DNA of 64,000 bases from Polyangiales bacterium (GCA_038231275.1 JBBRLQ010000017.1:131530-195529), one strand, 5' to 3'. Numbered from the stretch's first letter, positions 28,495 through 44,367 are shown. A program made the numbers and translations. The notes: a model not told the origin generated them from the letters alone.

Positions 28495-28740
28495 TTGGAA
28501 TCCGACGAAAAGGCTGCCAGAGAAGAGCGGGCCGCGCGACGGCGCGCGACGTGGACCGGCGGTGTCGCGCGCTCGTTCGCCGAGCTCGAGGCGCTCGACC
28601 GCGACGCGTGGCGGGCGACGACCGGCGCCGACCGCGTGCGGATCATCTGGCCCCTCACTTGGGAAGCAATGGTGCTCGCTGGATACGATGGACCTCCACC
28701 CCGACTTCAGAGATCTGCTGGCGGAGTTCGTCGGCGCTGA
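28495..28740 (+). CDS. Small hypothetical protein, partner of downstream nucleotidyltransferase
   Basis: 81-aa ORF overlapping the NTase start; DRDAW..T..DR..IIW.L, PRLQRS pattern. Confidence 0.55.
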   Translation: MESDEKAAREERAARRRATWTGGVARSFAELEALDRDAWRATTGADRVRIIWPLTWEAMVLAGYDGPPPRLQRSAGGVRRR

Positions 28741-29152
28741 CGTTCGCTTCGTGGTGCTCGGCGGGTACGCCGTCGGTCACCATGCCAAGCCACGCGCGAC
28801 GAAAGATCTCGACCTCCTGCTGTCGCGCGAGGGCGACAACCTCCAGCGTGCAGCAACGGCTCTCGCGCGCTTCGGCGCATCGGGCTCCGTCGTCGCCGAC
28901 GTACGTTCGCTCGGGTCGGACGAGATCGTCTACATGGGCGTGCCCCCTGTTCACGTCGACATGATGGCGCGCGCAGACGGCATCGACACCGAGGAGGTGA
29001 TCGTGCGCGCAGTCAGGGTCGACGTCGGCGGGCTACTGATCCCGTTCATTTCGCTGGAGGACCTCATCGCCAACAAGCGCGCTGCGGGCCGGCCGCAGGA
29101 CCTGGCTGACGTCGCGTCGCTCGAGAGCCTCGCTGCGCGCGGCGAGGGGTAA
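28688..29152 (+). CDS. Nucleotidyltransferase-fold protein (DUF6036-like)
   Basis: DFRDLL..F..ADVRFVVLGGYAVGHHAKPRATKDLDL, DLIANKRAAGRPQDLADV. Confidence 0.8.
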   Translation: MDLHPDFRDLLAEFVGADVRFVVLGGYAVGHHAKPRATKDLDLLLSREGDNLQRAATALARFGASGSVVADVRSLGSDEIVYMGVPPVHVDMMARADGIDTEEVIVRAVRVDVGGLLIPFISLEDLIANKRAAGRPQDLADVASLESLAARGEG

Positions 29153-30132: not shown

Positions 30133-30206
30133 GAGCCAACAATACGCCCGATTCGGCGACGATCGAGGGTGCATCGAGCGTGGAGCTGAGCTATCCGCAC
30201 ACCCCG

Positions 30207-31661
30207 ATGACCGTAGAGGCCACCCCGGACGCCGTTGCCGACGCCGGCCCGGCCAGCTCGCGCGAGCTCTTCGGCCACCCGGTCGGGCTCTACGTCCTCT
30301 TCTTCACGGAGATGTGGGAGCGCTTTTGCTACTACGGCATGCGCGCGCTCCTGGCGCTGTACGTCGCGCACCACCTGTCGCATGCGGACATCGCGCCGCA
30401 GGTGGCAGGGCTCGCGGCGGTGCGCGGCGGGATTGAGTCGGTCTTCGGCAAGCTCGACGACGAGCAGTTCGCCGACCAAATCTACGGCCTCTACACCGCG
30501 TTCACGTACCTGACGCCGCTCTTCGGCGGCATCTTGGCCGATCGCCTCATCGGGCAGCGGAAGAGCGTGGTGATCGGCGGCGTCATCATGGCGATCGGCG
30601 AGTTCATGATGATGAAAGAGTCGCTCTTCTTCCCCGCCATGCTCACGCTGGTCATCGGCAACGGCTTCTTCAAGTCGAACATCTCGACGCAAGTGGGCGG
30701 CCTCTACAAGAAGGGGGACGAGCGCCGCGACCGCGCGTTCAACATCTTCTACGTCGGCATCAACCTGGGCGCGTGGCTGTCGCCGTTCATCTGCGGGACG
30801 CTCGGGCAGAGCAAAGGGAGCGACGGGGTCGAGCACTGGGGCTGGGGCTTCGGCGCGGCCGGCGTGGGGATGATCGTTGGACTCTGCATCTATCTGTGGG
30901 GGCAGCGCTTCCTCGCGCCCGACCAGATCATGAAGAAGAAGGCGGCGGCCCAGACCGCGAGCACGCCGCCGAAGAAGCCGCTCACCAAGGGCGAGTGGGC
31001 GCGCGTGATCGCGCTCATCGTCCTCTGCGCGCTCAACATCTCGTTCTGGGGGGTGTACGAGCAGCAGGGCAACTCGCTCCAGTTCTGGGCCGACGGCAAG
31101 GCGGATCTCCACATCTTGCGGTGGCTCGGCAGCGAGTGGGAGATGCCGTCGACGTGGTTCCAGTCGGTGAACCCGATGTTCATCTTCACGCTCACCGCGA
31201 TCATCAACCCGTTCTGGGCGTACCTCGCGAGGAAGGGGAAGGATCCCTCGAGCGTCGCGAAGATGGCGATCGGCTGCTTTTTGCTGGGGATCTCGTTCCT
31301 CGTGATGATCGGCGGCGGGCGCGTCGTCGACGGCGGGCACAAGGCGAGCTTCGGGTGGCTCGTCGGCTGCACGTTCTTGCTGACGCTCGGCGAGCTGTAC
31401 CTTTCGCCGGTGGGGCTCTCGCTCGTGACGAAGATTTCGCCACCGAAGATCGTGTCGATGATGATGGGGATGTGGTTCCTCTCGAGCTTCTTCGGCAACT
31501 ACGCGTCGGGGTACCTGGCGACGTTCGCGAACCGAATGTCGAACAGCTCCTTCTTCCTCCTGCTCGCGGTCATCTCGCTGGTCACCGGCGTGCTGATGAT
31601 CCTCCTCTACCGGCCGCTGCGCCGCGCGATAGGGGACGAGAACGAAGCGGCGACGGTCTGA
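30207..31661 (+). CDS. POT-family proton-dependent oligopeptide transporter (MFS)
   Basis: GHPVGLYVLFFTEMWERFCYYGMRALL (ExxERFxYY), GNGFFKSNIS, FYVGINLGA, FQSVNP, GELYLSPVGLS. Confidence 0.95.
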   Translation: MTVEATPDAVADAGPASSRELFGHPVGLYVLFFTEMWERFCYYGMRALLALYVAHHLSHADIAPQVAGLAAVRGGIESVFGKLDDEQFADQIYGLYTAFTYLTPLFGGILADRLIGQRKSVVIGGVIMAIGEFMMMKESLFFPAMLTLVIGNGFFKSNISTQVGGLYKKGDERRDRAFNIFYVGINLGAWLSPFICGTLGQSKGSDGVEHWGWGFGAAGVGMIVGLCIYLWGQRFLAPDQIMKKKAAAQTASTPPKKPLTKGEWARVIALIVLCALNISFWGVYEQQGNSLQFWADGKADLHILRWLGSEWEMPSTWFQSVNPMFIFTLTAIINPFWAYLARKGKDPSSVAKMAIGCFLLGISFLVMIGGGRVVDGGHKASFGWLVGCTFLLTLGELYLSPVGLSLVTKISPPKIVSMMMGMWFLSSFFGNYASGYLATFANRMSNSSFFLLLAVISLVTGVLMILLYRPLRRAIGDENEAATV

Positions 31662-31673
31662 GGAACGAACCCC

Positions 31674-32612
31674 GTGGACGCGCTCGCTCTCATGTACGAC
31701 GCACCGGCGACGGTCGGATGCCCTAGCGAGTTGGAGTTCCGTGCCCAGGTCGCCGCACGCGCGGGGACGACCGGGCGCGCCGATCAGACCTTCCGGGTGA
31801 AGATCACGAGCGGCGATGCATTCGAAGGGCGTCTCACCATCGTAGATCGCGGGGAAACTGCAATGCGTCTCCTCAGCGCCGCAACCTGCGCCGAGCTGGG
31901 GCAAGCGTTAGCGCTCGCGCTCGCGACGGCGCTCGAGTCCGACGAGCCGACACCCGAACGTTCACAGGCGCCCTCCGACCCTCCTCCAAATCCCGCAACT
32001 CTCGCCGTCGCCCCCCCCGCATCGGCTTCCGCACCCTCGCGCGTTCCCGTTCCCGTTCCCCTTCCGGGAGCGGGCACGACAGACGCCCTCCCACGGGCAC
32101 ACACGCCTCGACGCGCGGCCGCCGGACTCGCTGGCGGACCTGCAAGCGGACTCGGCCCGCTCCTCGCGCCGGAGCTCGCAGTCTTCGCGGAGCTCGCATG
32201 GGGCGTTCGCACGGCGCGCCTGAACATCGCGACCTCACTTGGTGGTTCGATCCCCGCGGGCGATGCGCACGGCCTGCTCCGTCGCGCGGCTCTGCGGGTC
32301 GACGGCTGCCCGCTCGCGTGGGACCTCGGGGTCATCACCCCGTCCCTCTGCGCGGTTGTCGAAGGAGGCCTCCTTGTGGCGAGCGGCAGGGGCGGGGCGA
32401 GCCCGGAGTCGACGGTGCGTCCTTGGGCGGCTGCGGGTGTCCTCGCGCGCGCGCGCCTCGACGTCTCGGACCGATTTTTTTTCGAGATTGAGACGCGCGC
32501 GGCTTTTCCATTCTGGCGCGATCAGTTCTTTTTCCGCCCAAGTACGGACATTTACACTGTGCCAGTCGCCACATTCGCTACCGAGCTTGGGACCGGCGTG
32601 CGGTTTTGGTGA
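31674..32612 (+). CDS. Hypothetical ECF-associated protein with C-terminal beta-barrel-like region (possibly 5'-truncated)
   Basis: GCPS..FRAQVAAR, CAELGQALAL, Pro linker, amphipathic beta strands, C-terminal aromatic (GVRFW); no signal peptide. Confidence 0.6.
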   Translation: MDALALMYDAPATVGCPSELEFRAQVAARAGTTGRADQTFRVKITSGDAFEGRLTIVDRGETAMRLLSAATCAELGQALALALATALESDEPTPERSQAPSDPPPNPATLAVAPPASASAPSRVPVPVPLPGAGTTDALPRAHTPRRAAAGLAGGPASGLGPLLAPELAVFAELAWGVRTARLNIATSLGGSIPAGDAHGLLRRAALRVDGCPLAWDLGVITPSLCAVVEGGLLVASGRGGASPESTVRPWAAAGVLARARLDVSDRFFFEIETRAAFPFWRDQFFFRPSTDIYTVPVATFATELGTGVRFW

Positions 32613-32618
32613 TGAAAC

Positions 32619-33257
32619 GTGCAATCCGCGGTCATACCTAGCGCCCCTATGATCGGTCAGGCCTCTGCCCGCATTCCCGCCTGTCCGGCGAGTGGCGTCC
32701 TCGCCGAGACGGGGGCGCGTGCGAAGGAGGAGGCGACGCGGCTCGAGGGCATCGTACGTGGGCATTACGCGTTCTTGTGGCGCTCGCTTCGTCGTCTCGG
32801 CGTGGCCGAGCGTGAGGTGGACGACGCGCTCCAGCGGGTCCTCGCCGTCCTCGCGCGCCGATTGGGTGAGATCGCGCCGGGTGCCGAGCGCAGTTTCCTC
32901 TTTCAAACCGCTCTGCGCGTCGCGGCGGAGATGCGCCGCGCAAACGCGCGCGGACGGCTTTCGTTCGACGAGGCCGCCGTCGACCGTGCGCGCGACGGCG
33001 CCCCTCTTCCTGACGAGGTTTTGGAGCGTCGTGAAGCGCGCGCGATCCTCGATGAGGTCCTGGACGCGCTCCCCCTCGACGTCCGCGCGGTCTTCGTTCT
33101 CTTCGAGCTCGAGCAGCTCACGACACCGGCGATCGCCGAGCTTCTCGCGATCCCTCCGGGCACCGTGAGCTCGCGGCTCCGGCGCGGCCGCGAGGAGTTC
33201 CAGACCCTCGCAAAACGACTCCGAGCCCAACGGGTGTTCGCGGGAGGTGCCACGTGA
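32619..33257 (+). CDS. ECF-family RNA polymerase sigma factor
   Basis: Region 2 (HYAFLWRSLRRLGV..VDDALQRV..SFLFQTA) and region 4 (LDALP..RAVFVLFELE..IAELL.IPPGTVSSRLRRGR). Confidence 0.93.
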   Translation: MQSAVIPSAPMIGQASARIPACPASGVLAETGARAKEEATRLEGIVRGHYAFLWRSLRRLGVAEREVDDALQRVLAVLARRLGEIAPGAERSFLFQTALRVAAEMRRANARGRLSFDEAAVDRARDGAPLPDEVLERREARAILDEVLDALPLDVRAVFVLFELEQLTTPAIAELLAIPPGTVSSRLRRGREEFQTLAKRLRAQRVFAGGAT

Positions 33258-34090
33258 GCGATCCGAAGCGACTCCTCGATGCCGACGTCTCGACGTTCGA
33301 ACGCTCCTTGCTCGCCTCGGGCGCAGGGGACCTCGCCCCGAAAGGCGGCGAAGACCGTGCCCTCGCGGCGCTCGGAATCGCGGGAGCCACCGCCGGAGTG
33401 ATCGCGGCCAGCGCAGCGGCCAAAGCCAGCGCGAGCGCGACGCCCGTAAGCGCCGCGGCGACGAAGATCGCTACGGCGGTACTCATCAAGTGGGCGAGCC
33501 TCGGCCTCATCGCGACCGCGGCCACGGCCGGCACGATCGTCTTCGTTGCGACCCCGGCGCAGCCTCCAGCGCAAATCGAGGCGCAATTCCCGATGCCGCC
33601 TCCCAGGCTCCAAGCGGCGCCAAGACCGAATGCGAAGCCCATCGGAACACCAATTCCAGAGCCGACGCCTGCGACGACGCCGACTCCGATCGCGACGCCG
33701 ACGCCGACGCCGACTCCGACTCCGATCGCGACTCCGACTCCGATCGCGACTCCGATCGCGACGCCGACTCCGACTCCGATCGCGACGCCGACTCCAACCC
33801 CGATCGTTGCGGCGGCGCCTCTGTATCCCGAGCTCACGGCGCTCGACCGCGCTCGCGACGCGCTTCGTGCGAGGGATGCCGCGGGGGCAATGCGTGCGCT
33901 GGAGGAGTATGACGCCCGCTTCCCGCGGGGTTCGCTCCGCGAAGAAGCAGATGTCGCGTGGATTCAAGCGCTCCTCGACCACGGAGACGTCGCCGCGGCA
34001 GAGGCTCGTGCGCGGGCCTTCCTCGCGGGGCGGCCGCAGAGCGCCTACACAAAACGTGTGCGGCAGCTCCTCGCGAAGACGAATCGGTGA
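33254..34090 (+). CDS. Putative anti-sigma factor (TM helix, Pro-Thr linker, C-terminal TPR)
   Basis: GTGA overlap with ECF; MSDPKRLL start; Ala-rich region, TM, (PT) repeat, ELTALDRARDAL..YDARFPRGSL.EEA..AFL...PQS. Confidence 0.8.
   Translation: MSDPKRLLDADVSTFERSLLASGAGDLAPKGGEDRALAALGIAGATAGVIAASAAAKASASATPVSAAATKIATAVLIKWASLGLIATAATAGTIVFVATPAQPPAQIEAQFPMPPPRLQAAPRPNAKPIGTPIPEPTPATTPTPIATPTPTPTPTPIATPTPIATPIATPTPTPIATPTPTPIVAAAPLYPELTALDRARDALRARDAAGAMRALEEYDARFPRGSLREEADVAWIQALLDHGDVAAAEARARAFLAGRPQSAYTKRVRQLLAKTNR
33662..33805 (+). repeat. Coding hexamer microsatellite (CCGACK)n encoding PTPTPIAT linker
   Basis: Tandem ccgacg/ccgact/ccgatc/gcgacg units. Confidence 0.85.
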
Positions 34091-34133
34091 TGAGGAGTCG
34101 CCCCTCCCGGCCATCCCCCCGCGGAGGAGACGA

Positions 34134-36053
34134 ATGTTGAAACCCACTACCCTTGCGCTGACGGTCGCCCTCGGAACGGCAATCGCCGCGACGGCGTGCG
34201 GCGGTCACGTGGCCCTCGGCGGGGCGGATGATGCCGGCGGAACCGGAAGCAATGGCGGAGACGCGGGCGCAGCCGGAACGACCGGCAACGGCCTGCCGAG
34301 CGCCAACGGCGGAACGATCGTCCCCGTAGACAACGCGCCGACGGGAACGCTCACCCAAGCGAGCAAGGTCGATCTGCTCCTCGTCATCGACAACTCCGCG
34401 TCGATGGGCGACAAGCAAGCCCTCCTCCGCAAAGCCGTTCCCGATCTGGTGACGCGACTCGTCGCCCCGAGCTGCGTGGACGCGAACGGCACCACGGTGG
34501 GAACGTCCGTAAACGGCACCTGCGCGCAAGGCAAGCTCGAGTTCGCGCCCGTTCGCGACATGCACGTCGGCGTCATCACGACCTCACTCGGCGGTCGCGG
34601 CGGCGACGTTTGCGACGGCACCGATCCCGTGGGCCAAGGCGCGAGGCGCTACGACAACGATCAGGCTCACCTTGTGATGAGAGACATCCCCCTCGCTTCC
34701 CGCTACCCCTCCGGCTTTCTCGTTTACGGAGACTTCGGCACCAAGGATCCCGCGCAACTTCGTGGCGACCTGCAGAACCTCATCGCCGGCGTGGGCGAGT
34801 ACGGCTGCGGTATCGAAGCGCAGCTGGAGAGCTGGTACCGGTTCCTCGTTCAGCCCGATCCCTACGCCAGCATCGTCGCCGATCCCGCGGACGGCCGCAG
34901 GAGGGCCCTCGCCGGGATTGATACGAGGCTACTTCAGCAGCGCCACGACTTCTTGCGTCCCGATTCGCTCGTCGCCATCGTCCTTTTGACGGACGAGGAC
35001 GATTCGGCGGAGGATCCGATGAGTGTCGGCGGACAGGGATGGGCGTACAGCATGAAGCGCTTTCCGGGTTCCGTCGGCGGCGGGGCGGCGCGTGGCACGT
35101 CGACCTGCGCAAGCAAGCCGACGGACAACGCTTGCACGTCGTGCGCCTTTCCAGGTGTTGGTTCGGACCCGTCGTGCCAACTCCCAGGGGACACGGACAC
35201 CGCGAGCGGGCAACCGCAGCTTGGTTACTACAAGGCGGCGGAAGACACGCTGAACACGCGCTACGTGCGAATGAAGAATCGCTACGGCGTTGATCCGCAG
35301 TTTCCGTTGTCCCGATACTTCCTTGGCCTCTCTTCGGCGAAGGTCCCCACTCGCGATACGGAGCATGGCGTTTCGCCCATCAACAACGCACCCGGGTACG
35401 TGGGCACGCCGGTCTGTACCAATCCTCTCTTCGCCGCGAGGTTGCCGACCGGCGCCGTGGGCGAGGACCTCTGCAACCTTCCTCCCGGGCCGCGCGCGGC
35501 GAACATGATCGTCTTTGCGACGATAACCGGCGTCCCCTCTCAGCTGCTCAATGGGGCGCTCGAGACGACCGCGTGGACGCGCATCGTGGGCGCCGATCCC
35601 CTCGCGTACGACTACTCCGGCGTCGATGTGCACATGATCCCATCGCAGACGCCGCGCGCCGGGCTGCCGGCCCCGGATGTGAGCGACACGGCCGATCCGA
35701 TGAGCGGCCGCGAATGGGACACCGGCGGCAGCGATTTGCAGTACGCGTGCACGTTCAAGCTGGCCGACCCCAAGGACTGCAAGGACCCTACATTCGCGGG
35801 CGCCTGTGATTGCACATCGGGCACCCCTCCCCTTCCGCCGCTCTGCGACGCTGCGGTTCGAACGACCCAGATCCGAGGCAAAGCGTACCCCGGGGTTCGC
35901 CAGCTCCAGCTCGCTCGCATGCTCGGCCCGCGCGCCGTGGCCGCGTCGATTTGCCCGCAGGACGTGCCGGAGGCCGACCCGCAGTACGGCTTTCGCCCTG
36001 CCCTCGAGAGTCTCGGCAACCGGATGGCGCGCTCGCTCGTCCCGCAGCAGTAA
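34134..36053 (+). CDS. vWA-like (MIDAS) domain lipoprotein
   Basis: GGAGGAG RBS, lipobox ATAC, KVDLLLVIDNSASM (DxSxS), GCGIEAQLE, FLRPDS..LLTDEDD. Confidence 0.8.
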   Translation: MLKPTTLALTVALGTAIAATACGGHVALGGADDAGGTGSNGGDAGAAGTTGNGLPSANGGTIVPVDNAPTGTLTQASKVDLLLVIDNSASMGDKQALLRKAVPDLVTRLVAPSCVDANGTTVGTSVNGTCAQGKLEFAPVRDMHVGVITTSLGGRGGDVCDGTDPVGQGARRYDNDQAHLVMRDIPLASRYPSGFLVYGDFGTKDPAQLRGDLQNLIAGVGEYGCGIEAQLESWYRFLVQPDPYASIVADPADGRRRALAGIDTRLLQQRHDFLRPDSLVAIVLLTDEDDSAEDPMSVGGQGWAYSMKRFPGSVGGGAARGTSTCASKPTDNACTSCAFPGVGSDPSCQLPGDTDTASGQPQLGYYKAAEDTLNTRYVRMKNRYGVDPQFPLSRYFLGLSSAKVPTRDTEHGVSPINNAPGYVGTPVCTNPLFAARLPTGAVGEDLCNLPPGPRAANMIVFATITGVPSQLLNGALETTAWTRIVGADPLAYDYSGVDVHMIPSQTPRAGLPAPDVSDTADPMSGREWDTGGSDLQYACTFKLADPKDCKDPTFAGACDCTSGTPPLPPLCDAAVRTTQIRGKAYPGVRQLQLARMLGPRAVAASICPQDVPEADPQYGFRPALESLGNRMARSLVPQQ

Positions 36054-36140
36054 GCCACGGGTCGAGGTCACCCAGAGCATATCCCGGCAGGCGCCAGCTC
36101 GAGACAGGCGGCGACGTCCAGTCGCAGCGAACGATCCTCT

Positions 36141-36164
36141 CGCAGCTGGAAACGCAGCTGAAAA
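36141..36164 (+). promoter_or_regulatory. 12-bp tandem repeat, candidate upstream activator site
   Basis: CGCAGCTGGAAA CGCAGCTGAAAA, about 135-160 bp upstream of the sigma54 -24 box. Confidence 0.5.
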
Positions 36165-36298
36165 TAGCCGCGCGCGAGCGAAGAGCGATCCATCAGCGCG
36201 AATATCCCACACGACCCAAATCGGGACCCGTGGCGGAATGTTCGACCGACCTCGTCGCACATCGAAAAACTTTTCCGTCGCCGCGCGCTTTTCGCCGG

Positions 36299-36314
36299 TG
36301 GCACATCGGCTGCA
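36299..36314 (+). promoter_or_regulatory. Sigma54 (-24/-12) promoter of RiPP operon
   Basis: TGGCAC-ATCGG-CTGCA, GG-N10-GC spacing, 51 bp before the precursor ATG. Confidence 0.65.
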
Positions 36315-36365
36315 ATTCGATCTGCTCGAACGGCGCGCGGCGCGCCTCACCACGAGGAGCAGATC

Positions 36366-36719
36366 ATGAACGACGGAAACAAGAAGGCGACGCTGAAAGA
36401 GCTCACGCCCATCGATCCGGATTTTCTCACGGTCGTCGTCGGAGGCTGCGCGAGCTCGATGAAGGTCATCGGGGTCTCGGACGACGGCGGAGGCGCGCAA
36501 GCCGACGGCGGCGGAGGTGACGGCGGCAGCGGTGACGGTGGCGGAGCCGGCGACGGTGGCGGAGGAGCAGGAGACGGCGGCGGCGGCGGCGACGGCGGCG
36601 GCGGCGACGGCGGCGGCGGCGGCGGCGACGGCGGCGACGGGGGCGGCGGCGGAGGGGATGGCGGCGGAGGGGACGGCGGCGGCGGCGACGGCGGCGGCGG
36701 CGGCGGCGGAGGGGCCTGA
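36366..36719 (+). CDS. Putative RiPP precursor peptide (double-Gly leader, Asp/Gly-repeat core)
   Basis: GAGGAG RBS; leader MNDGNKKATLKELTPIDPDFLTVVVGG; core CASSMKVIGVSD followed by 13 DGG units; first gene before RRE and rSAM genes. Confidence 0.85.
   Translation: MNDGNKKATLKELTPIDPDFLTVVVGGCASSMKVIGVSDDGGGAQADGGGGDGGSGDGGGAGDGGGGAGDGGGGGDGGGGDGGGGGGDGGDGGGGGGDGGGGDGGGGDGGGGGGGGA
36480..36716 (+). repeat. (GAC-GGC-GGC...) low-complexity repeat encoding D-G(2-8) units
   Basis: Direct reading of sequence. Confidence 0.9.
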
Positions 36720-36729
36720 TTCCCGCGCG

Positions 36730-36772
36730 GACGGACGCCCTCGCGCACGACCACGCGCGAGGGCGATCCGTC
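36730..36772 (+). terminator. Strong stem-loop between precursor and maturase genes (mRNA stabiliser/attenuator)
   Basis: GACGGACGCCCTCGCGC-loop8-GCGCGAGGGCGATCCGTC: 17-bp stem with 1-nt bulge; no U-tract. Confidence 0.65.
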
Positions 36773-36810
36773 GGAGACCAGATCGCCTCGCGACCACCAG
36801 GAGACCCACC

Positions 36811-37083
36811 ATGAGCACGTCACGCGTTCCCGTCCTCGCCAAGCACCTGCGCCTCCGCAAGCACGAGCCCGTCGCGTACAACGCGCGGCGCTCCGAGTTG
36901 CACAAGCTCAACGCGACCGCGTATGCGATCTTGGGTCTGGTCGATGGCGCGCGCACGGTCGAGCAGATCGCAGTCGCGTGCATGGACGGCGACGACGCGG
37001 CGGCCGTCGCGTTCGCGCCCAAGGTCGAGACGTTCCTCGAGCGGTGCAAGAGCCAAGACATGATCGCGTGGAGCGCGACGTGA
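36811..37083 (+). CDS. PqqD-family RiPP recognition element (stand-alone RRE)
   Basis: AGGAG RBS; 90 aa; HKLNATAYAILGLVDGARTVEQIA...VETFLERCKSQDMI matches the PqqD LNxTAxxIWxLxDGxRTVxxI pattern. Confidence 0.88.
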   Translation: MSTSRVPVLAKHLRLRKHEPVAYNARRSELHKLNATAYAILGLVDGARTVEQIAVACMDGDDAAAVAFAPKVETFLERCKSQDMIAWSAT

Positions 37084-37997
37084 CCGTCGCCGCGCCGTTC
37101 GCGGTCAGCTGGTATCTCACCAAGCGCTGCGATCTGTCGTGCCGCCACTGCTTCGTGCCGGTGGTGCGCCCCGACGACGCGCGCGGCGAGGTCGACACCG
37201 CCACGGCGAAGCGCTTCATCGCGTCGATCTGGAATTCGGACGTCTACATCCTCTCGTTCGCCGGCGGCGAGCCGATGCTCCGTCAGGATTTCTTCGAGCT
37301 CGCCCGCTTCGCGCGGGACCTCGGGCTCACGGTGCTCACGAGCACCAACGCGCAGCGCCTCGACGACGCCACGCTCGACCGCATCGTCGACGCCGGATTC
37401 CAGTCGCTCCAGGTGAGCCTCGACGGCCTCAGCGCGGCGCCCCACGAGGCGATCCGCGGCGCCGGCACGTTCGACGTCGCGCGCCGCGGGCTCGAGCTCA
37501 CGATGCGGCGGAGCGTGGGGGGGTTGAAGGTGGTCCTCGCCGTGGCGCTCCACCGGCGCATCCTGCCGGAGCTCGACGCGATCCTCGCGTTCGCGCGCGA
37601 AAGCGGCATTTTTTCGCTCAAGCTCCAGCCCGTCGCGCGGCCGTTCCGTTACGCCGACGGCACGCCTGGGCACATCTCGGAAGACGAAGCGGCGCGCGCG
37701 ATCGCCCACGCGAAGCGCGGCCTCGACGGCTCCCGCGTGCAGCTCGCCTACGCGAGCTGGGTCGACCTCTTCCTGCGCGGCGACGCCCGCCAGAGCTGCG
37801 CGCTCGGTCTCCGCACCGCCATCGTCGACGCCGAAGGGCGCGTCTCGACGTGCGACGAGATGCCCGGCACAGGCGACGCCATCGGCGGCTCTTTCTCTGA
37901 CGCGTGGGAGGCCGCCGTCCGCGAGGAGCGCGCCCGCCCGCGCTGCGGTTGCTACGCGTTTCGGGATCGCAAACGGCGTCTACTGGAGGTGGCGTGA
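37080..37997 (+). CDS. Radical SAM enzyme with truncated SPASM (Twitch-like) domain
   Basis: GTGA overlap; CDLSCRHC, FAGGEPML, STNA, VSLDG..HEAIRGAGTF; SC..GRVSTC..CGC at C-terminus. Confidence 0.92.
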   Translation: MTVAAPFAVSWYLTKRCDLSCRHCFVPVVRPDDARGEVDTATAKRFIASIWNSDVYILSFAGGEPMLRQDFFELARFARDLGLTVLTSTNAQRLDDATLDRIVDAGFQSLQVSLDGLSAAPHEAIRGAGTFDVARRGLELTMRRSVGGLKVVLAVALHRRILPELDAILAFARESGIFSLKLQPVARPFRYADGTPGHISEDEAARAIAHAKRGLDGSRVQLAYASWVDLFLRGDARQSCALGLRTAIVDAEGRVSTCDEMPGTGDAIGGSFSDAWEAAVREERARPRCGCYAFRDRKRRLLEVA

Positions 37998-39148
37998 TGC
38001 TCGACGTTCCCGCAACGATCAACTGGTACGTCACCAAGCGCTGCAACCTCGTCTGCACGCACTGCTACAACTACGAGGACGGCGAGGTCCCCCGCGCGAA
38101 GCAGGGAGAGCTCGATCGCGAAGAGGCGATGGCGCTCGGCGAGCGCTTGGTCGACGCCGGCGTCTTCATGATCAACCTGATCGGCGGCGAGCCGCTCACC
38201 GTGCCGTGGCTCGTCGACCTCGTGCGCGTCCTCGCGGACGGCGGAATTCGTGTATCGGTGGCGACGAACGGCACGCTGCTCGACGAGGTGCGCATCGCCG
38301 CGCTGCTGGAGGCCGGCGTCTCGCGCTTCCAGATCAGCCTCGACGGCGCGACGCCGGAGGTGCACGACGCCATCCGCGGCAAGGGCAACTTCGCGCGCGC
38401 GCTTCGCGGCCTGCGTCTCCTCCGCAAGGCCGGCCACGATCCTCAGGTCGCCTTCACCCTCATGAAGTCGAACCAGGGCGAGCTCGAGCCGCTCGTCGCG
38501 CTCCTCCGCCGTGAAGGCATCGGCCTCCTCAAGCTGAGCACCGTCATTCCGAGCGGACGCGCACAAGAGGATCTCGACGAGCTCCTGACCGGCGACGCGC
38601 TACGCGCCCGCATCAACTGGCTGCACCGCGTCGAGAAGGCCTCGCGCGGCGCGCTGCACGTCGACTACCCCTGCTTCGTCGGCCACATCGACGAGAAGAC
38701 CGCGAAGGACGCGTGGAAGCCCGCCGAGAAGGCGCACCACCTCTCGTGCGGGGCCGGCATGACCCGCGCGGTGATCTGGGAGGACGGCAGCGTGGGCGCG
38801 TGCGACTTCATGCGCGAGGATCACGTTGGCGATCTGCGGAAGGACGCGATCAAGGACATCTGGACGAGCGACACCGAGGAGTTCGCGCGATGGCGCCGAC
38901 TCGACAAGGTCGAGAACAAGTGCGGCTCGTGCGGGTACCAGGCCAAATGCGGCTTCGGCTGCCGCGCGAGCGCCTATTTCGGCGGCGGCGATTTCTACGG
39001 GTGGGACCCGATGTGCATCTCGACGCCGCCCCAAGGAGTCGAGCATCCGTGGGAACAGAGTCGGCCGCACGACGAGATCCGCGCGACGACGCCGCTCACC
39101 AAGCGTCGCCTCCCCGTCCTCTCGCCGCGCTCCGGAGCACCGGCGTGA
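37997..39148 (+). CDS. Radical SAM/SPASM domain peptide maturase (PqqE/MftC-like)
   Basis: TGATG overlap; CNLVCTHC, GGEP, ATNGTL, ISLDG..HDAIRGKGNF; SPASM: CGAG..GSVGAC, CGSC..KCGFGC..DPMC. Confidence 0.95.
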   Translation: MLDVPATINWYVTKRCNLVCTHCYNYEDGEVPRAKQGELDREEAMALGERLVDAGVFMINLIGGEPLTVPWLVDLVRVLADGGIRVSVATNGTLLDEVRIAALLEAGVSRFQISLDGATPEVHDAIRGKGNFARALRGLRLLRKAGHDPQVAFTLMKSNQGELEPLVALLRREGIGLLKLSTVIPSGRAQEDLDELLTGDALRARINWLHRVEKASRGALHVDYPCFVGHIDEKTAKDAWKPAEKAHHLSCGAGMTRAVIWEDGSVGACDFMREDHVGDLRKDAIKDIWTSDTEEFARWRRLDKVENKCGSCGYQAKCGFGCRASAYFGGGDFYGWDPMCISTPPQGVEHPWEQSRPHDEIRATTPLTKRRLPVLSPRSGAPA

Positions 39149-40212
39149 TCGAGGACGCGTCCCTCCCCGCGTGCTCGGCGGCCGACGTCGCCGGCGATCT
39201 CGCGCGCCTCTTCGCCGACGCGCGGGCCGTCGCGGAGTCGCTCGCCGGAGGCCTCGTATGGGTGGCCGGGACGCGCGACAAGATCCGCCTCGCGTACGAC
39301 GCGTACTACGTCGCGTGCGCGGCAGAAGCGTTGCGGGAGCGGCACGCGCGCCTCGCGTGGTGGTCGACCGAGACTCCGGCCCGCGCGCCGAGCGTCACGG
39401 CGCCCGACGTCCGGCTCGACGGTCTCCGCGACTCGCTCGAGGCGCAGCTCGCGAGGACGTCGTTCGTGGCGGATGGCGACACGACCCTCGCGCTGGAGCA
39501 TGCGCTCGCGCTCGTCCGCCGAGCGTCCGGCATCGGCGCTATCGCTCCGTCCATGCCTTCGTTCGCGGGCCGACCCGCGCGGGCGCCGGGGCTCCGCGAA
39601 GGAAAGCCCGCGACGCGCACCACCGTCGACCTCCTCCACACGATCGTCTTCCAGGTCGAGATCGCGGCCGTCGAGGTGTGCAGCCGCATCTGGGTGGAGC
39701 ACCCCGAGGCCCCCTGGGCGCTGCACCTCGACATGGCCCGTCAGGTCTTCGACGAGGCGCGGCACGCCGAGATGCTCCTCGCCCGCCTCGAGCAGCTCGG
39801 CGGACGCGAAGGGCAAGGCCCGATCGACTACAAGGTGTGGGACACGTTCCAAGCGGTGCGCGGGTTGCCGGCGCGCCTGCTCGTACAGCACCGCATCGGC
39901 GAAGGGCGCGGCCTCGACGCGTGCGAGCAGCTTCGAAAGAGCAGCGAGGCGAGCGGCGACGTCGCGACCGCGCGCGTCTTCGAGTTCATCATGGCCGACG
40001 AGGTCCATCACGTACGCGCGGGCCACGACTGGCTGCGCGCGCTGGGGCAAGGCGATCCGGGTCGCCTCGGCGAGCTCGAGGCGGAGACGTTCGAGCGCCT
40101 CATGGATCGCGGCATTTTCGTGCCGGATCCGAAGCCCGAGCAGGTCAATGTCCGCGCGCGCCTGGCCGCCGGCTTCACGCGCGCCGACGTCGCGGAGCTG
40201 GTCGCGCCGTGA
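39145..40212 (+). CDS. Ferritin-like diiron protein (DUF455-like)
   Basis: GTGA overlap; LH..FQVEIAAVE, DMARQVFDEARH, EGRGLDA, IMADEVHHV: two ExxH pairs plus a C-terminal R..AGF motif. Confidence 0.82.
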   Translation: MIEDASLPACSAADVAGDLARLFADARAVAESLAGGLVWVAGTRDKIRLAYDAYYVACAAEALRERHARLAWWSTETPARAPSVTAPDVRLDGLRDSLEAQLARTSFVADGDTTLALEHALALVRRASGIGAIAPSMPSFAGRPARAPGLREGKPATRTTVDLLHTIVFQVEIAAVEVCSRIWVEHPEAPWALHLDMARQVFDEARHAEMLLARLEQLGGREGQGPIDYKVWDTFQAVRGLPARLLVQHRIGEGRGLDACEQLRKSSEASGDVATARVFEFIMADEVHHVRAGHDWLRALGQGDPGRLGELEAETFERLMDRGIFVPDPKPEQVNVRARLAAGFTRADVAELVAP

Positions 40213-41558
40213 ACCTCGACGTACCGAACGGACAGACCGCCGCCGCGTCGACGCGCAGCAAATCGCTGCTCGCGCTCCACGAGGAGACGAAGCTCGGGCC
40301 CGACGAGGGCGCCGCGGTGAGCCGCGAGCGGTTCCACGCGAAGGTGTCGTCCCCCACCGCGGGGCGCGTCGGCGTCGGGAACCTCAACGAGGCCGCGAGC
40401 GCGGCGTTCGCCCTCGACGTGCTCGGCCTCGCGCTCGGCGTCTCGGGTCGCGTCCCCTACCCCGTCAGATGCAACGCCTCGAGCGGCAACCTGCACACGG
40501 TCGAGGCGCGCGTCGCGTTCGCGCACGAAGGCGGCGTCGCGATCGGTCACTACGATCCAACCTCGCACACCCTCGCGCTCCGTGGCGCCGCCCGCTGCGA
40601 TGCACCCGTCTCCGCGCTCCGCGTCGCGCTCAGCCTCGTGCTGGAGAGGCAGAGCGCGAAGTACGGCGCGCGCGGCTACCGCTACGGCCTCCTCGATCTT
40701 GGTCACGCGCTCGGTGCGCACGTGCTGGCCGCCCACGCGCGCGGCGCGCACGTCGCCCTCGAAGACTGGAGCGAGGAGGCGACCGGGCGCGCGTTCGGCG
40801 TGAGCCCGTTCGCCTCCGCACCCGAGCGTACCGGGCTCGTCCTTCGCGTCGCGCGCGGGCCGCTCGCCGACGCGCCTCGCCCCCGCTGCGCCGCCACCGA
40901 CTCGCCCTCCGCCGTCGGCCGTGATGCCCGCATGCACGCCTGGCACGATCGCACCTCATCCGGCCACTCGCGGCTCCGCGAGGCCTTCGGCGCCGGCTGG
41001 CTCCCCGCCGCCGACTGGCGCGACGTCGGACCGACGCTCATCCGTCAACGGCGGAGCGCGCGCGCCTTCACGCCGGCGGTCCTGGCGCGAGGCGAGCTCG
41101 ACGCGATCCTCCGCCCACTCGCCCGCGCGCTCGGACGCGAAGGCGCCGACGTCGCGATGCGAGCGGCCGTCGCGGCGCACGACGTACACGGTGTGGCGCC
41201 AGGATTCTACGCGCTCGCCCCCGACGGCAGCCTGAGCGCGCTCCACGTCGGCGACGTTCGCGACGACACGTGTTTCATGCACGCATGCCAGCAAATGGCC
41301 GGAGACGCCGCGTTCGTCGTCATGCTCGGCGCGCCGCTGGCCGAGCTCGTGGCGTTGCGCGGCGGACGCGCGTACCGCGACGCGCACGTGGTCGCCGGCG
41401 CGATCGGCCAGCTCCTCTGCGTCACCGCCGAGTCCGCCGCCCTGCGCGGCAACCCGATGGGGGCCTTCTTCGACGATGAGCTCGCGCCGCTCTTCCCCGC
41501 GGGCCACGCGCCGCTCCACACGCTGGCGTTCGGCGTCCCTCGTCCACGCACTGCGTGA
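40209..41558 (+). CDS. SagB/ThcOx-family FMN dehydrogenase (tandem nitroreductase domains)
   Basis: GTGA overlap; RCNASSGNLHTVE, KYGARGYRYGLLDLGHA, RQRRSARAF, AYR..H..AGAIGQ, GAFFDDE. Confidence 0.85.
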   Translation: MNLDVPNGQTAAASTRSKSLLALHEETKLGPDEGAAVSRERFHAKVSSPTAGRVGVGNLNEAASAAFALDVLGLALGVSGRVPYPVRCNASSGNLHTVEARVAFAHEGGVAIGHYDPTSHTLALRGAARCDAPVSALRVALSLVLERQSAKYGARGYRYGLLDLGHALGAHVLAAHARGAHVALEDWSEEATGRAFGVSPFASAPERTGLVLRVARGPLADAPRPRCAATDSPSAVGRDARMHAWHDRTSSGHSRLREAFGAGWLPAADWRDVGPTLIRQRRSARAFTPAVLARGELDAILRPLARALGREGADVAMRAAVAAHDVHGVAPGFYALAPDGSLSALHVGDVRDDTCFMHACQQMAGDAAFVVMLGAPLAELVALRGGRAYRDAHVVAGAIGQLLCVTAESAALRGNPMGAFFDDELAPLFPAGHAPLHTLAFGVPRPRTA

Positions 41559-41566
41559 CTTTTGGT

Positions 41567-41606
41567 CAGGAGCGTTCGCTGCGCTGCGCTGCGCTGCGCT
41601 CCGCTT
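41567..41606 (-). repeat. REP-like intergenic element, copy 2, with (GCGCT)n pentamer array
   Basis: Minus strand AAGCGGAGCGCAGCGCAGCGCAGCGCAGCGAACGCTCCTG. Confidence 0.6.
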
Positions 41607-42516
41607 ACCGCAGCCGGGCGAGGGTCTTCGCGAAATCCTGCGGCGGCTCCACGCTCCACTGCACCGCGACCTCCGTCGCCGGGTGCACGAAGCCGAGCTC
41701 GCGCGCGTGCAGCATGAGGCGCGGCGCCGGGATCGGATCGCCGCCCAAACCGCGTACGTAGACCCGCTCGCCCACGATGGGGTGCCCAGCCTCCGAGAGG
41801 TGGACCCTGATTTGGTGCGTCCGCCCCGTCTCGAGCCTGCACGCGATGAGGGTCGCCCCCTGGAGCTTCTCGATGACCTCGACGTGCGTGATCGCGAGCT
41901 GCCCCTCGTCGTCGCGCGGCCGCGAGCCGCGGAGACCGTCGCCGCGGTTGGCGACGATGTGCGACCGGAACGTCCGCGCCTTCACGTCGCCGTGCGCGAG
42001 CGCGAAATAGCGACGATGCACCGTGTGCTCGCGAAACTGCGTCGCGAGGATCTTCTTCGCGAGCCACGTGCGCGTGAAGACGACGAGCCCGCTCGTCTCC
42101 TTGTCGATGCGGTGAACGACGCCGAGCGTCGGACGGTCGTTTCGGTCCCCCCTCTTGTCCATGCGCGACAGCGCCGCGCGGACGCGCTCGTCGAGGGTCC
42201 CGGTCTCCGACTCGTCGTACGGCACCGTGCTGATGCCGCTCGGCTTGTTGACGATCACGACGTGCGCGTCGACGAAGACGATCGCCCCCGCGGGCAAATC
42301 GGTCGCCGGACGCGGCTTCGGCGCGGTCATCGTCATCACGACCTTGGAGTCGCGCGGCACCTTCCTGCGCGGGTCGGTCCACGTCTCGCCGTCGACGGTG
42401 ATCTTGCCGCGCTCGATCCAGCGGCGCGCCTCTCCCCAGCTGACGGCGTAGAGCGCACGCACGACGGCGTCGATAGGCTCTTGCGCGAGCTTCGGTGGAA
42501 TGATTTTCTCGGTCAC
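41605..42516 (-). CDS. RluA/RluD-family pseudouridine synthase with S4 domain
   Basis: S4-like N-terminus, VNKPSG, HRIDKETSG, LETGRTHQIRVHL, LMLHA; GTG start 42516. Confidence 0.92.
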   Translation of the reverse strand: MTEKIIPPKLAQEPIDAVVRALYAVSWGEARRWIERGKITVDGETWTDPRRKVPRDSKVVMTMTAPKPRPATDLPAGAIVFVDAHVVIVNKPSGISTVPYDESETGTLDERVRAALSRMDKRGDRNDRPTLGVVHRIDKETSGLVVFTRTWLAKKILATQFREHTVHRRYFALAHGDVKARTFRSHIVANRGDGLRGSRPRDDEGQLAITHVEVIEKLQGATLIACRLETGRTHQIRVHLSEAGHPIVGERVYVRGLGGDPIPAPRLMLHARELGFVHPATEVAVQWSVEPPQDFAKTLARLR

Positions 42517-42526
42517 GTCCCGTCCT

Positions 42527-42563
42527 CTATAGCAAGCGTCGCGCAACGTGACGCTTGCTATAG
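42527..42563. promoter_or_regulatory. Perfect 14-bp inverted repeat with 9-nt spacer in divergent promoter region
   Basis: CTATAGCAAGCGTC-GCGCAACGT-GACGCTTGCTATAG. Confidence 0.7.
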
Positions 42564-43735: not shown

Positions 43736-43975
43736 ATGGCAGCCGCGACGATCACGAGCAAGGGGCAGCTCACCGTACCGCGGGAAATCCGGGCCGCGCT
43801 CGGCGTTGGCCCGGGCGATCGCCTCGCTTTCCGGATCCACGAGGACGGGAGCGTCACCGTCGAGCCCGAGACGGTCGACCTGCGGACCCTCCGCGGATCG
43901 ATTCGGCCGAAGGTCCGCGGTGTGACGATCGCGGCCATGAACGACGCGATTCGTCGCTCCGCCGCCGGTCGATGA
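43736..43975 (+). CDS. vapB: AbrB/MazE/SpoVT-family antitoxin
   Basis: ATITSKGQLTVPREIRAALGVGPGDRLAF. Confidence 0.92.
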   Translation: MAAATITSKGQLTVPREIRAALGVGPGDRLAFRIHEDGSVTVEPETVDLRTLRGSIRPKVRGVTIAAMNDAIRRSAAGR

Positions 43976-44367
43976 TCGCTCTCGATACGAACGTCCTGGT
44001 CCGGTTCATCGTCGATGACGACAAGCACCAGGCGGCCCGAGCTCTCAAGCTGATCGAGCGGGCGATGGAGAGCCAAGAAGCCCTGTTCGTTTCGGACATC
44101 GTCTTGTGCGAGTTCGTATGGGTGCTCTCGGCCAGCTACCGGGTCGCTCGCGCCGAGATCGCGGCGACGTTGGGACGCTTGGTTCAGTCGAGGCAGCTCT
44201 CGTTCACCGACGGTGAGCGCGTGCGCCGGGCCACGGACGCCTTCGCGAAGGGCCGCGGCGACTTCGCGGACTACTTGATTCGTGAGCACGCACGCGACGC
44301 GGGCTGTACCGCCGTCGCGACCTTCGACCGCGCGCTGCTCAAGGACACGCTATTCGTCGCGCCGTGA
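43972..44367 (+). CDS. vapC: PIN-domain toxin VapC
   Basis: ALDTNVLVR, VLCEFVWVL, DFADYLI, TFDR; ATGA overlap. Confidence 0.93.
   Translation: MIALDTNVLVRFIVDDDKHQAARALKLIERAMESQEALFVSDIVLCEFVWVLSASYRVARAEIAATLGRLVQSRQLSFTDGERVRRATDAFAKGRGDFADYLIREHARDAGCTAVATFDRALLKDTLFVAP

Follow-up and report, generated by a model that had tools for sequence, protein, structure and literature searches.

An undescribed type of RRE/radical-SAM peptide-modification operon with a putative Gly/Asp-repeat precursor in a Polyangiales bacterium

A stretch of 64,000 nt of DNA from a Polyangiales bacterium (GCA_038231275.1 JBBRLQ010000017.1:131530-195529), here referred to as the window, carries at positions 36299..41558 on the + strand a real, selected operon for peptide modification, consisting of a recognition element of the kind found with ribosomally synthesised and post-translationally modified peptides (RiPP recognition element, RRE), two radical S-adenosylmethionine (rSAM) enzymes, a di-iron protein and a flavoprotein. 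The operon is of an undescribed type, and its substrate and chemistry are putative. It comprises six open reading frames (ORFs), the first of 117 codons for a candidate precursor peptide and the following five for the enzyme set. What is established is the order of the genes, the identity of their domains, the integrity of the catalytic motifs, the selection acting on the enzymes and the rarity of the operon. The probability that the operon is functional, was acquired horizontally and serves the RiPP-like modification of a ribosomal peptide, being of an undescribed type and working by the mechanism proposed below, is estimated at roughly 60%.

The enzyme set starts with a stand-alone PqqD-type RRE of 90 aa (36811..37083), followed by rSAM1, a radical SAM protein of 305 aa with a CX3CX2C motif (37080..37997), rSAM2, a radical SAM/SPASM protein of 383 aa (37997..39148), a DUF455 ferritin-like di-iron protein of 355 aa (39145..40212) and a two-domain SagB/ThcOx-type flavoprotein of 449 aa with a nitroreductase fold (40209..41558). 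The junctions, as read in the sequence, are GTGA (RRE/rSAM1), TGATG (rSAM1/rSAM2), GTGA (rSAM2/DUF455) and GTGA (DUF455/SagB). Start and stop codons thus overlap at all four junctions of these five co-directional genes, which are therefore translationally coupled, as had been claimed in the original prediction made from the same DNA. The precursor ORF (36366..36719), whose ATG lies 67 nt downstream of the start of the reported feature at 36299, is uncoupled and separated from the RRE gene by a 91-nt gap. All five enzyme-set genes are strongly coding-like by GC content at the three codon positions, with GC3 of 0.89-0.92. Pfam places five of the six operon proteins above its cut-offs, the precursor being the one without a match, and the enzyme families named in the original prediction were thereby recovered. 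Among the NCBIfam models listed none was reached at its curated cut-off by any operon protein, so that no curated RiPP class fits the operon. Nor is this enzyme set described in the literature searched by full text, outside of which lie subscription-only papers and supplements, and the earlier statement that no characterised RiPP class is known to have such a set is supported within this scope. An Rfam search of 31-43 kb gave no match and a sigma-70 promoter scan gave 0 sites, while one terminator-like site was found at 41545-41557, with 2.1 expected by chance.

The RRE matches PF05402 (PqqD) at 1.6e-7 with 32 bits against a cut-off of 23.4, and scores 24.1 bits, under the cut-off of 46, with the PqqD equivalog TIGR03859. 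Its stop codon overlaps the start of rSAM1 and the RRE domain thus adjoins the gene of an rSAM maturase. Two general features of RRE-dependent rSAM RiPP systems are present: an RRE beside an rSAM, and a CX3CX2C core with an auxiliary-cluster region of the SPASM/Twitch type. A second PqqD-domain gene in the genome, on contig C2:423781-423981, scores better, with 51.8 bits.

The Pfam Radical_SAM domain scores 65.6 bits in rSAM1 and 102 bits in rSAM2, and a SPASM domain is present in rSAM2 only (34 bits). The short C-terminal region of rSAM1 contains four Cys that are conserved in its family (C240, C258, C289 and C291) and looks Twitch-like, consistent with a single auxiliary cluster. This family is small, with 12 representatives, rSAM1 itself included, at E <= 1e-30 among 1.84 billion, the best being 44% identical. 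With the family profile the best solved structure is the thioether-forming SkfB (6efn, 5.7e-33, positions 5-295 against 107-394), the match spanning the rSAM domain and the C-terminal Cys region; with the single sequence it is PqqE (6c8v, 1.9e-13), SkfB being weak at 9e-7. In rSAM2 a seven-Cys SPASM pattern is visible, its best NCBIfam match is AhbD with 191.9 bits against a cut-off of 500, and as judged from its sequence it is a full SPASM enzyme in the MftC/AhbD/NirJ neighbourhood. The best-scoring curated relatives of both rSAM enzymes, among the models listed, are MftC, PqqE and NirJ/AhbD; the StsB model gave 73 and 116 bits for the two against a cut-off of 625.

The DUF455 protein is assigned to its family by a PF04305 score of 109.2 bits against a cut-off of 34.3 and by its di-iron ligand set; it has no NCBIfam family. 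An N-terminal four-helix extension (approximately residues 12-126) precedes the core bundle (160-300), and the residues E172, E204, H207, E253, E286 and H289, invariant in an alignment of seven DUF455 sequences, make up the full E/ExxH/E/ExxH ligand set. The AlphaFold2 model (predicted local distance difference test score, pLDDT, 83.8) has a ferritin-like bundle with the extra N-terminal four-helix part, and its best fold matches in VIA-align were aldehyde-deformylating-oxygenase-like and Dps/bacterioferritin chains at Z 15-16, a generic ferritin-like assignment only; Foldseek returned no PDB match to the model at E <= 0.001. Seven relatives were found at E <= 1e-5 among 5.8 billion clusters, the best with 44% identity over 58% of the length and 49% over 43%, and the N-terminal four-helix part is common only to a handful of metagenome proteins. 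The literature searched gives no function for the DUF455 family and no paper tying DUF455 or a ferritin-like protein to rSAM RiPPs. At many foreign DUF455 loci (L016-L069, from Binatus/Binataceae and 'delta proteobacterium' metagenome-assembled genomes) the match region extends over approximately 1,400 nt for only about 200 query residues, which suggests tandem DUF455 paralogues.

The operon is close to unique, having been found in one bacterial genome and, as short pieces, in metagenome contigs. Searches of about 1,670 genomes, drawn from its genus, family, order, class and phylum, revealed no orthologous cluster. The genomes comprised 61 relatives, 401 genomes of the phylum (searched with two different queries), 401 of the class and 401 of the order, 190 of the latter belonging to the same family. 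With rSAM1 as the query, the best foreign match among the 401 phylum genomes reached 3.7e-27, weaker than the paralogue within the cluster. With the rSAM1 family profile, the best foreign match among the 401 class genomes scored 161 bits compared to 405 for rSAM1 itself and 184 for rSAM2. In the set of 401 from the order, E <= 1e-48 was attained by the own genome alone. The surroundings of DUF455 genes were inspected at 79 genome-contig and 80 metagenome loci (from a three-sequence alignment) and at 11 short loci, which with the own locus makes 171, using up to 10 kb of DNA on each side for 159 foreign loci and about 1.5 kb for the remaining 11. In tblastn with the six operon proteins, four of these were matched at the own locus, while 169 of the 170 foreign loci matched DUF455 only and one matched nothing, so no second cluster protein was found beside a foreign DUF455 gene. 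Likewise, 12 loci (7.6-19.9 kb) around the best SagB matches of the phylum held no rSAM, RRE or DUF455 match at E <= 1e-3.

Short copies of the operon, 90-99% identical, were found in Logan contigs of the sequencing runs X3 and X4, which belong to another study than X1, the probable source run. No RNA data set was among the sequencing runs listed. These contigs bridge the RRE/rSAM1, rSAM1/rSAM2 and DUF455/SagB junctions, and gene order is thus kept in a diverged population. Among 40 listed differences in the metagenome variants 30 were synonymous (49 further differences exist beyond these), including all 12 listed for rSAM2. The differences being mostly synonymous, the enzymes are under purifying selection.

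The operon occupies a site that differs between relatives. In a genome of the same genus (G002), the transporter gene that corresponds to window 31386-31661 lies only about 700 bp from rluD (window 41624-42528), and the block of 31.66-41.6 kb is therefore missing there, while a different stretch of approximately 3.95 kb is found at the block site in genome G001. The variable block, 31661-41605 (about 10 kb), contains an ORF of 312 aa of unknown function, an extracytoplasmic function (ECF) sigma factor, an anti-sigma-like TPR protein, a 640-aa lipoprotein and the operon. On this sequence comparison the block is a variable insertion hot spot and the operon is horizontally variable; neither direct repeats flanking the block nor a tRNA or integrase were seen.

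Whether the 117-aa product of the first ORF is the substrate of these enzymes is less firmly settled, and the Gly/Asp ORF is on sequence grounds a plausible but unproven precursor. As the original prediction had described, it has a double-Gly leader and a core with a single Cys and no aromatic residue. The leader comprises residues 1-27 and ends in VVVGG (residues 23-27), and C28 comes next. The core of 90 residues (28-117) starts with CASSMKVIGVS, continues into a Gly/Asp repeat and contains 59 Gly, 14 Asp and four Ser. The C-terminal 68 codons of the ORF are a CGG-type repeat, detected in a repeat scan as a trinucleotide-type repeat of 68 CGG-like copies with 75% matches (36506..36709, + strand) that encodes a GGGGD-like repeat, and all spacings within it are multiples of 3. 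The ORF sits immediately upstream of the RRE gene and has a ribosome-binding site (RBS), GGAG, 7 nt before its ATG. In the first 135 nt, which are non-repetitive (36366-36500), GC1/2/3 is 0.60/0.42/0.82, a pattern that fits the enzyme genes (0.64-0.78/0.47-0.57/0.89-0.92) and not the antisense frame that has the same wobble positions. Gly codons are GGC in 68% of cases, compared to 66% in the enzymes of the operon. Between 36053 and 36811, ORF calls and codon-position GC revealed no further small ORF that looks coding.

A strong RNA hairpin of about 17 bp (36730..36772, + strand) lies directly after the precursor stop codon, outside the ORF and before the RBS of the RRE gene. The intergenic stretch of 97 nt has a folding energy of -44.3 kcal/mol (z = -4.08), and none of 200 shuffled sequences was as stable. 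No U-tract follows, and the hairpin may serve to terminate transcription partially or to stabilise the mRNA. RiPP operons commonly have a stem-loop downstream of the structural gene.

Two other readings of this region were considered and rejected. In the first, the RRE would have a long Ala-rich extension at its N-terminus, starting from the GTG at 36517; there is no spaced RBS, 36720-36810 shows no frame preference and the Pfam domain agrees with the 90-aa form. In the second, a lipoprotein signal would lie at VVVGGC; the segment before it, as read from the sequence, is charged and not hydrophobic.

We infer the identity of the substrate, the order of the steps and all of the chemistry in the mechanism proposed here. 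The 117-aa product of 36366-36719 would be the substrate, and its 27 N-terminal residues would be presented by the stand-alone PqqD-type RRE to the two rSAM enzymes. rSAM1, of the PqqE/SkfB branch and with one auxiliary-cluster region, would most likely abstract a C-alpha or C-beta hydrogen near the sole Cys, C28, the simplest guess for its product being one cross-link, either a thioether or a C-C bond, within CASSMKVIGVS. A second radical modification would be made by rSAM2 as a full SPASM enzyme. The DUF455 di-iron protein might then carry out an O2-dependent hydroxylation or oxidation, and the SagB/ThcOx-type flavin mononucleotide (FMN) enzyme a two-electron dehydrogenation without a YcaO partner. 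Removal of the leader after Gly-Gly and export, if any, would fall to a remote protein such as the single exporter of the ATP-binding cassette (ABC) type with a C39 peptidase in the genome. That such a remote exporter is possible follows from its presence in the genome; nothing links it to the operon. A complex prediction of the RRE with precursor residues 1-48 scored 0.02 against a mark of 0.34 and was used neither for nor against the scheme.

Several observations weigh against the operon and mechanism as proposed. Residues 1-45 of the precursor had 0 matches among the 5.8 billion clusters, the precursor matched nothing in Pfam or NCBIfam even at E 10, and no paralogue exists in the own genome, where tblastn of the leader gave chance-level matches only; a search of the ESM Atlas with the precursor gave no result. 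Across the repeat, all three frames and the antisense strand are open, and codon-position GC cannot separate them. Independent Logan contigs of run X1 end at 36314 and restart at 36774, leaving 36315-36773 uncovered, and repeat length, frame and stop position consequently rest on one assembly. The single-Cys core without aromatics offers few of the side chains that are cross-linked by characterised rSAM RiPP enzymes. The link of rSAM1 to SkfB is seen by family profile only, the single sequence preferring PqqE. Finally, an orthologous cluster was found in none of the sets searched, and the nearest relatives of the DUF455 protein (P0002, with a sole contig of 34,681 nt) and of the SagB-like protein (P0010, with a sole contig of 66,873 nt) lie apart, neither search having returned a partner on the contig of the other relative. 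Their location on different contigs is a hint that the enzymes are not conserved together as a set.

The lack of homologues, the open frames, the uncovered repeat and the little known rSAM chemistry that Gly and Asp offer speak for another reading, in which the enzymes are a real set that modifies peptides or proteins but the Gly/Asp ORF is not their substrate, being instead a short chance ORF followed by an untranslated GC-rich trinucleotide repeat, with the true substrate encoded elsewhere or a small molecule. We regard this as fairly unlikely, given the coding-type codon-position GC of the non-repetitive leader, the RBS at the right spacing, the leader ending in Gly-Gly and the position of the hairpin after the stop codon and not inside the ORF. 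In addition, the presence of a stand-alone RRE calls for a peptide with a leader, and the region between 36053 and 36811 offers no other candidate with a coding signature.

If the peptide is taken as the substrate, the operon might represent a new RiPP class in which a poly(Gly/Asp) core behind a Gly-Gly leader is tailored by two rSAM enzymes, a DUF455 di-iron oxidase and a YcaO-independent SagB-type flavoprotein. This is a tentative proposal that is probably wrong in at least some part. One conceivable product of such a class is an acidic glycine polymer that binds metal, carries one cross-link and is hydroxylated or dehydrogenated.

In layout the operon is most like the pathways of pyrroloquinoline quinone (PQQ; PqqA/D/E/B/C) and mycofactocin (MftA/B/C/D), yet every membership test for them failed. 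The shared features are a small peptide gene, a stand-alone PqqD-type RRE, an rSAM/SPASM protein, downstream oxidases and the absence of a dedicated protease or exporter, and the curated models of these pathways are the best-scoring for the RRE and both rSAM enzymes among the models listed. The operon differs in having two rSAM enzymes and oxidases from other families (DUF455 di-iron, nitroreductase fold). This likeness, together with PqqE as the best solved match of the single rSAM1 sequence, speaks for a small redox-cofactor-like or signalling molecule as the product. For this, only a few residues directly behind the Gly-Gly (CASSMKVIGVS) would be cross-linked by the rSAM enzymes, excised and then oxidised by the di-iron and flavin enzymes, while the Gly/Asp tail would serve as a disordered follower to be discarded. 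The PQQ and mycofactocin models all stay far under their cut-offs, however: TIGR03859 as given above, TIGR02109 (PqqE) with 74.9 and 103 bits against 381, and TIGR03962 (MftC) with 109.6 and 155.8 bits against 265. The core has neither Glu nor Tyr, so that the Glu-x3-Tyr substrate motif of PqqA is absent, and the peptide ends in GGGGA and not in the Gly-Val-Tyr of mycofactocin precursors with its C-terminal Val-Tyr. Pfam revealed no cofactor-dependent dehydrogenase among the 18 neighbouring ORFs (25.0-53.9 kb), and relatives should share a cofactor pathway, whereas none of the approximately 1,670 related genomes was found to have the operon. A cofactor-like product is accordingly considered unlikely. 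Pfam also found no YcaO, LanM, peptidase or exporter among the same 18 ORFs, in agreement with the original prediction.

The SkfA/SkfB sactipeptide system resembles the operon in three respects: the rSAM1 family profile matches the rSAM domain and C-terminal Cys region of SkfB (6efn), the CxC-containing C-terminal Cys set of rSAM1 suggests one auxiliary cluster, as in SkfB, and in the candidate substrate a Cys precedes a Met by a few residues. SkfB carries an N-terminal RRE of its own, while the operon encodes a stand-alone one, and unlike the Cys-rich cores of sactipeptides and ranthipeptides the core of the operon peptide has one Cys. Another likeness is to TIGR04260 (Cyano_gly_rpt), which we take to be an rSAM-associated Gly-rich repeat protein of cyanobacteria, its name and its length of 118 being the confirmed parts of this description. 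On that description the two share a length of about 118 aa, a C-terminal half of extreme Gly-rich repeat and a gene beside an rSAM/SPASM gene. TIGR04260, with a cut-off of 31 bits, had no match in the whole genome at E <= 1, and by this sequence comparison the candidate precursor is an analogue and not a member of that family.

The SagB-like protein scores 40.9 bits with PF00881 (Nitroreductase), above the Pfam cut-off, and 39.6 bits with TIGR03605, under the cut-off of 78.4. K151-Y152 and R281-R282-S283, the latter an FMN-type RRS motif, are invariant in 16 SagB-like sequences. Foldseek with the AlphaFold2 model (pLDDT 76.4) found as the best match the uncharacterised two-domain protein 3eo7 (E 1e-23, TM-score 0.70), followed by the azoline oxidases BmdC (9e-8), ThcOx (1e-6) and McbC (2e-5); the same fold was found in the C-alpha/C-beta dehydrogenase AlbAB. 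One relative has 43% identity and all others <= 32%. Of the original designation as a SagB-type dehydrogenase, the fold and broad family held up, as far as sequence and model indicate, and any closer assignment did not. With the dehydrogenases of thiazole/oxazole-modified microcins and linear azole-containing peptides (TOMM/LAP; SagB, McbC, ThcOx, BmdC) the protein shares the nitroreductase fold, the RRS motif and the conserved Lys-Tyr pair, which is presumably catalytic in azoline oxidases. The operon is nevertheless not a TOMM/LAP cluster, because it contains no YcaO or cyclodehydratase and TIGR03605 stays under its cut-off; there is also no YcaO among the 18 neighbours. That the SagB-like enzyme would oxidise azolines made from the one Cys and four Ser of the core by the single YcaO of the genome is very improbable, this YcaO being encoded on another contig (C43:47571-48536), the best structural match being no azoline oxidase and the fold being shared with AlbAB.

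Upstream of the operon and co-directional with it (window 32619-36053) lie the genes of the ECF sigma factor (Sigma70_r4_2), of the anti-sigma-like protein, which has a Thr-Pro repeat (DNA repeat 33627-33818), and of the 640-aa lipoprotein-like protein. The latter has no Pfam match, and 2-7 paralogous matches to it (37-64% identity) occur in each of five related genomes. A proton-dependent oligopeptide transporter of the POT/PTR2 family is encoded at 30180-31661, 4.7 kb upstream of the operon, and is probably unrelated to it, being conserved in same-genus genomes that lack the operon. Further out in the window are a pair of a MazE/AbrB-type antitoxin and a PIN-domain toxin, and an ORF for an AbiEii-like nucleotidyltransferase (window 43736-44367 and 28562-29152). 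The only C39-peptidase ABC transporter of the genome is an 882-aa ORF on contig C28:36620-41389. It is followed by two co-directional ORFs that look like membrane-fusion and outer-membrane parts (HlyD-like and TolC-like by position), and no small ORF with a Gly-Gly leader was noticed beside it.

The source organism is uncultured and the operon nearly a singleton, uncharacterised RRE/rSAM clusters are numerous, and the link between enzymes and product is putative. If the Gly/Asp peptide is the substrate, the operon would provide the first biochemical context for the widespread DUF455 di-iron proteins and an instance of a SagB/ThcOx-type flavoprotein that works without YcaO. It would also extend rSAM chemistry to a Gly/Asp-only core without the side chains on which characterised rSAM cross-linkers act.

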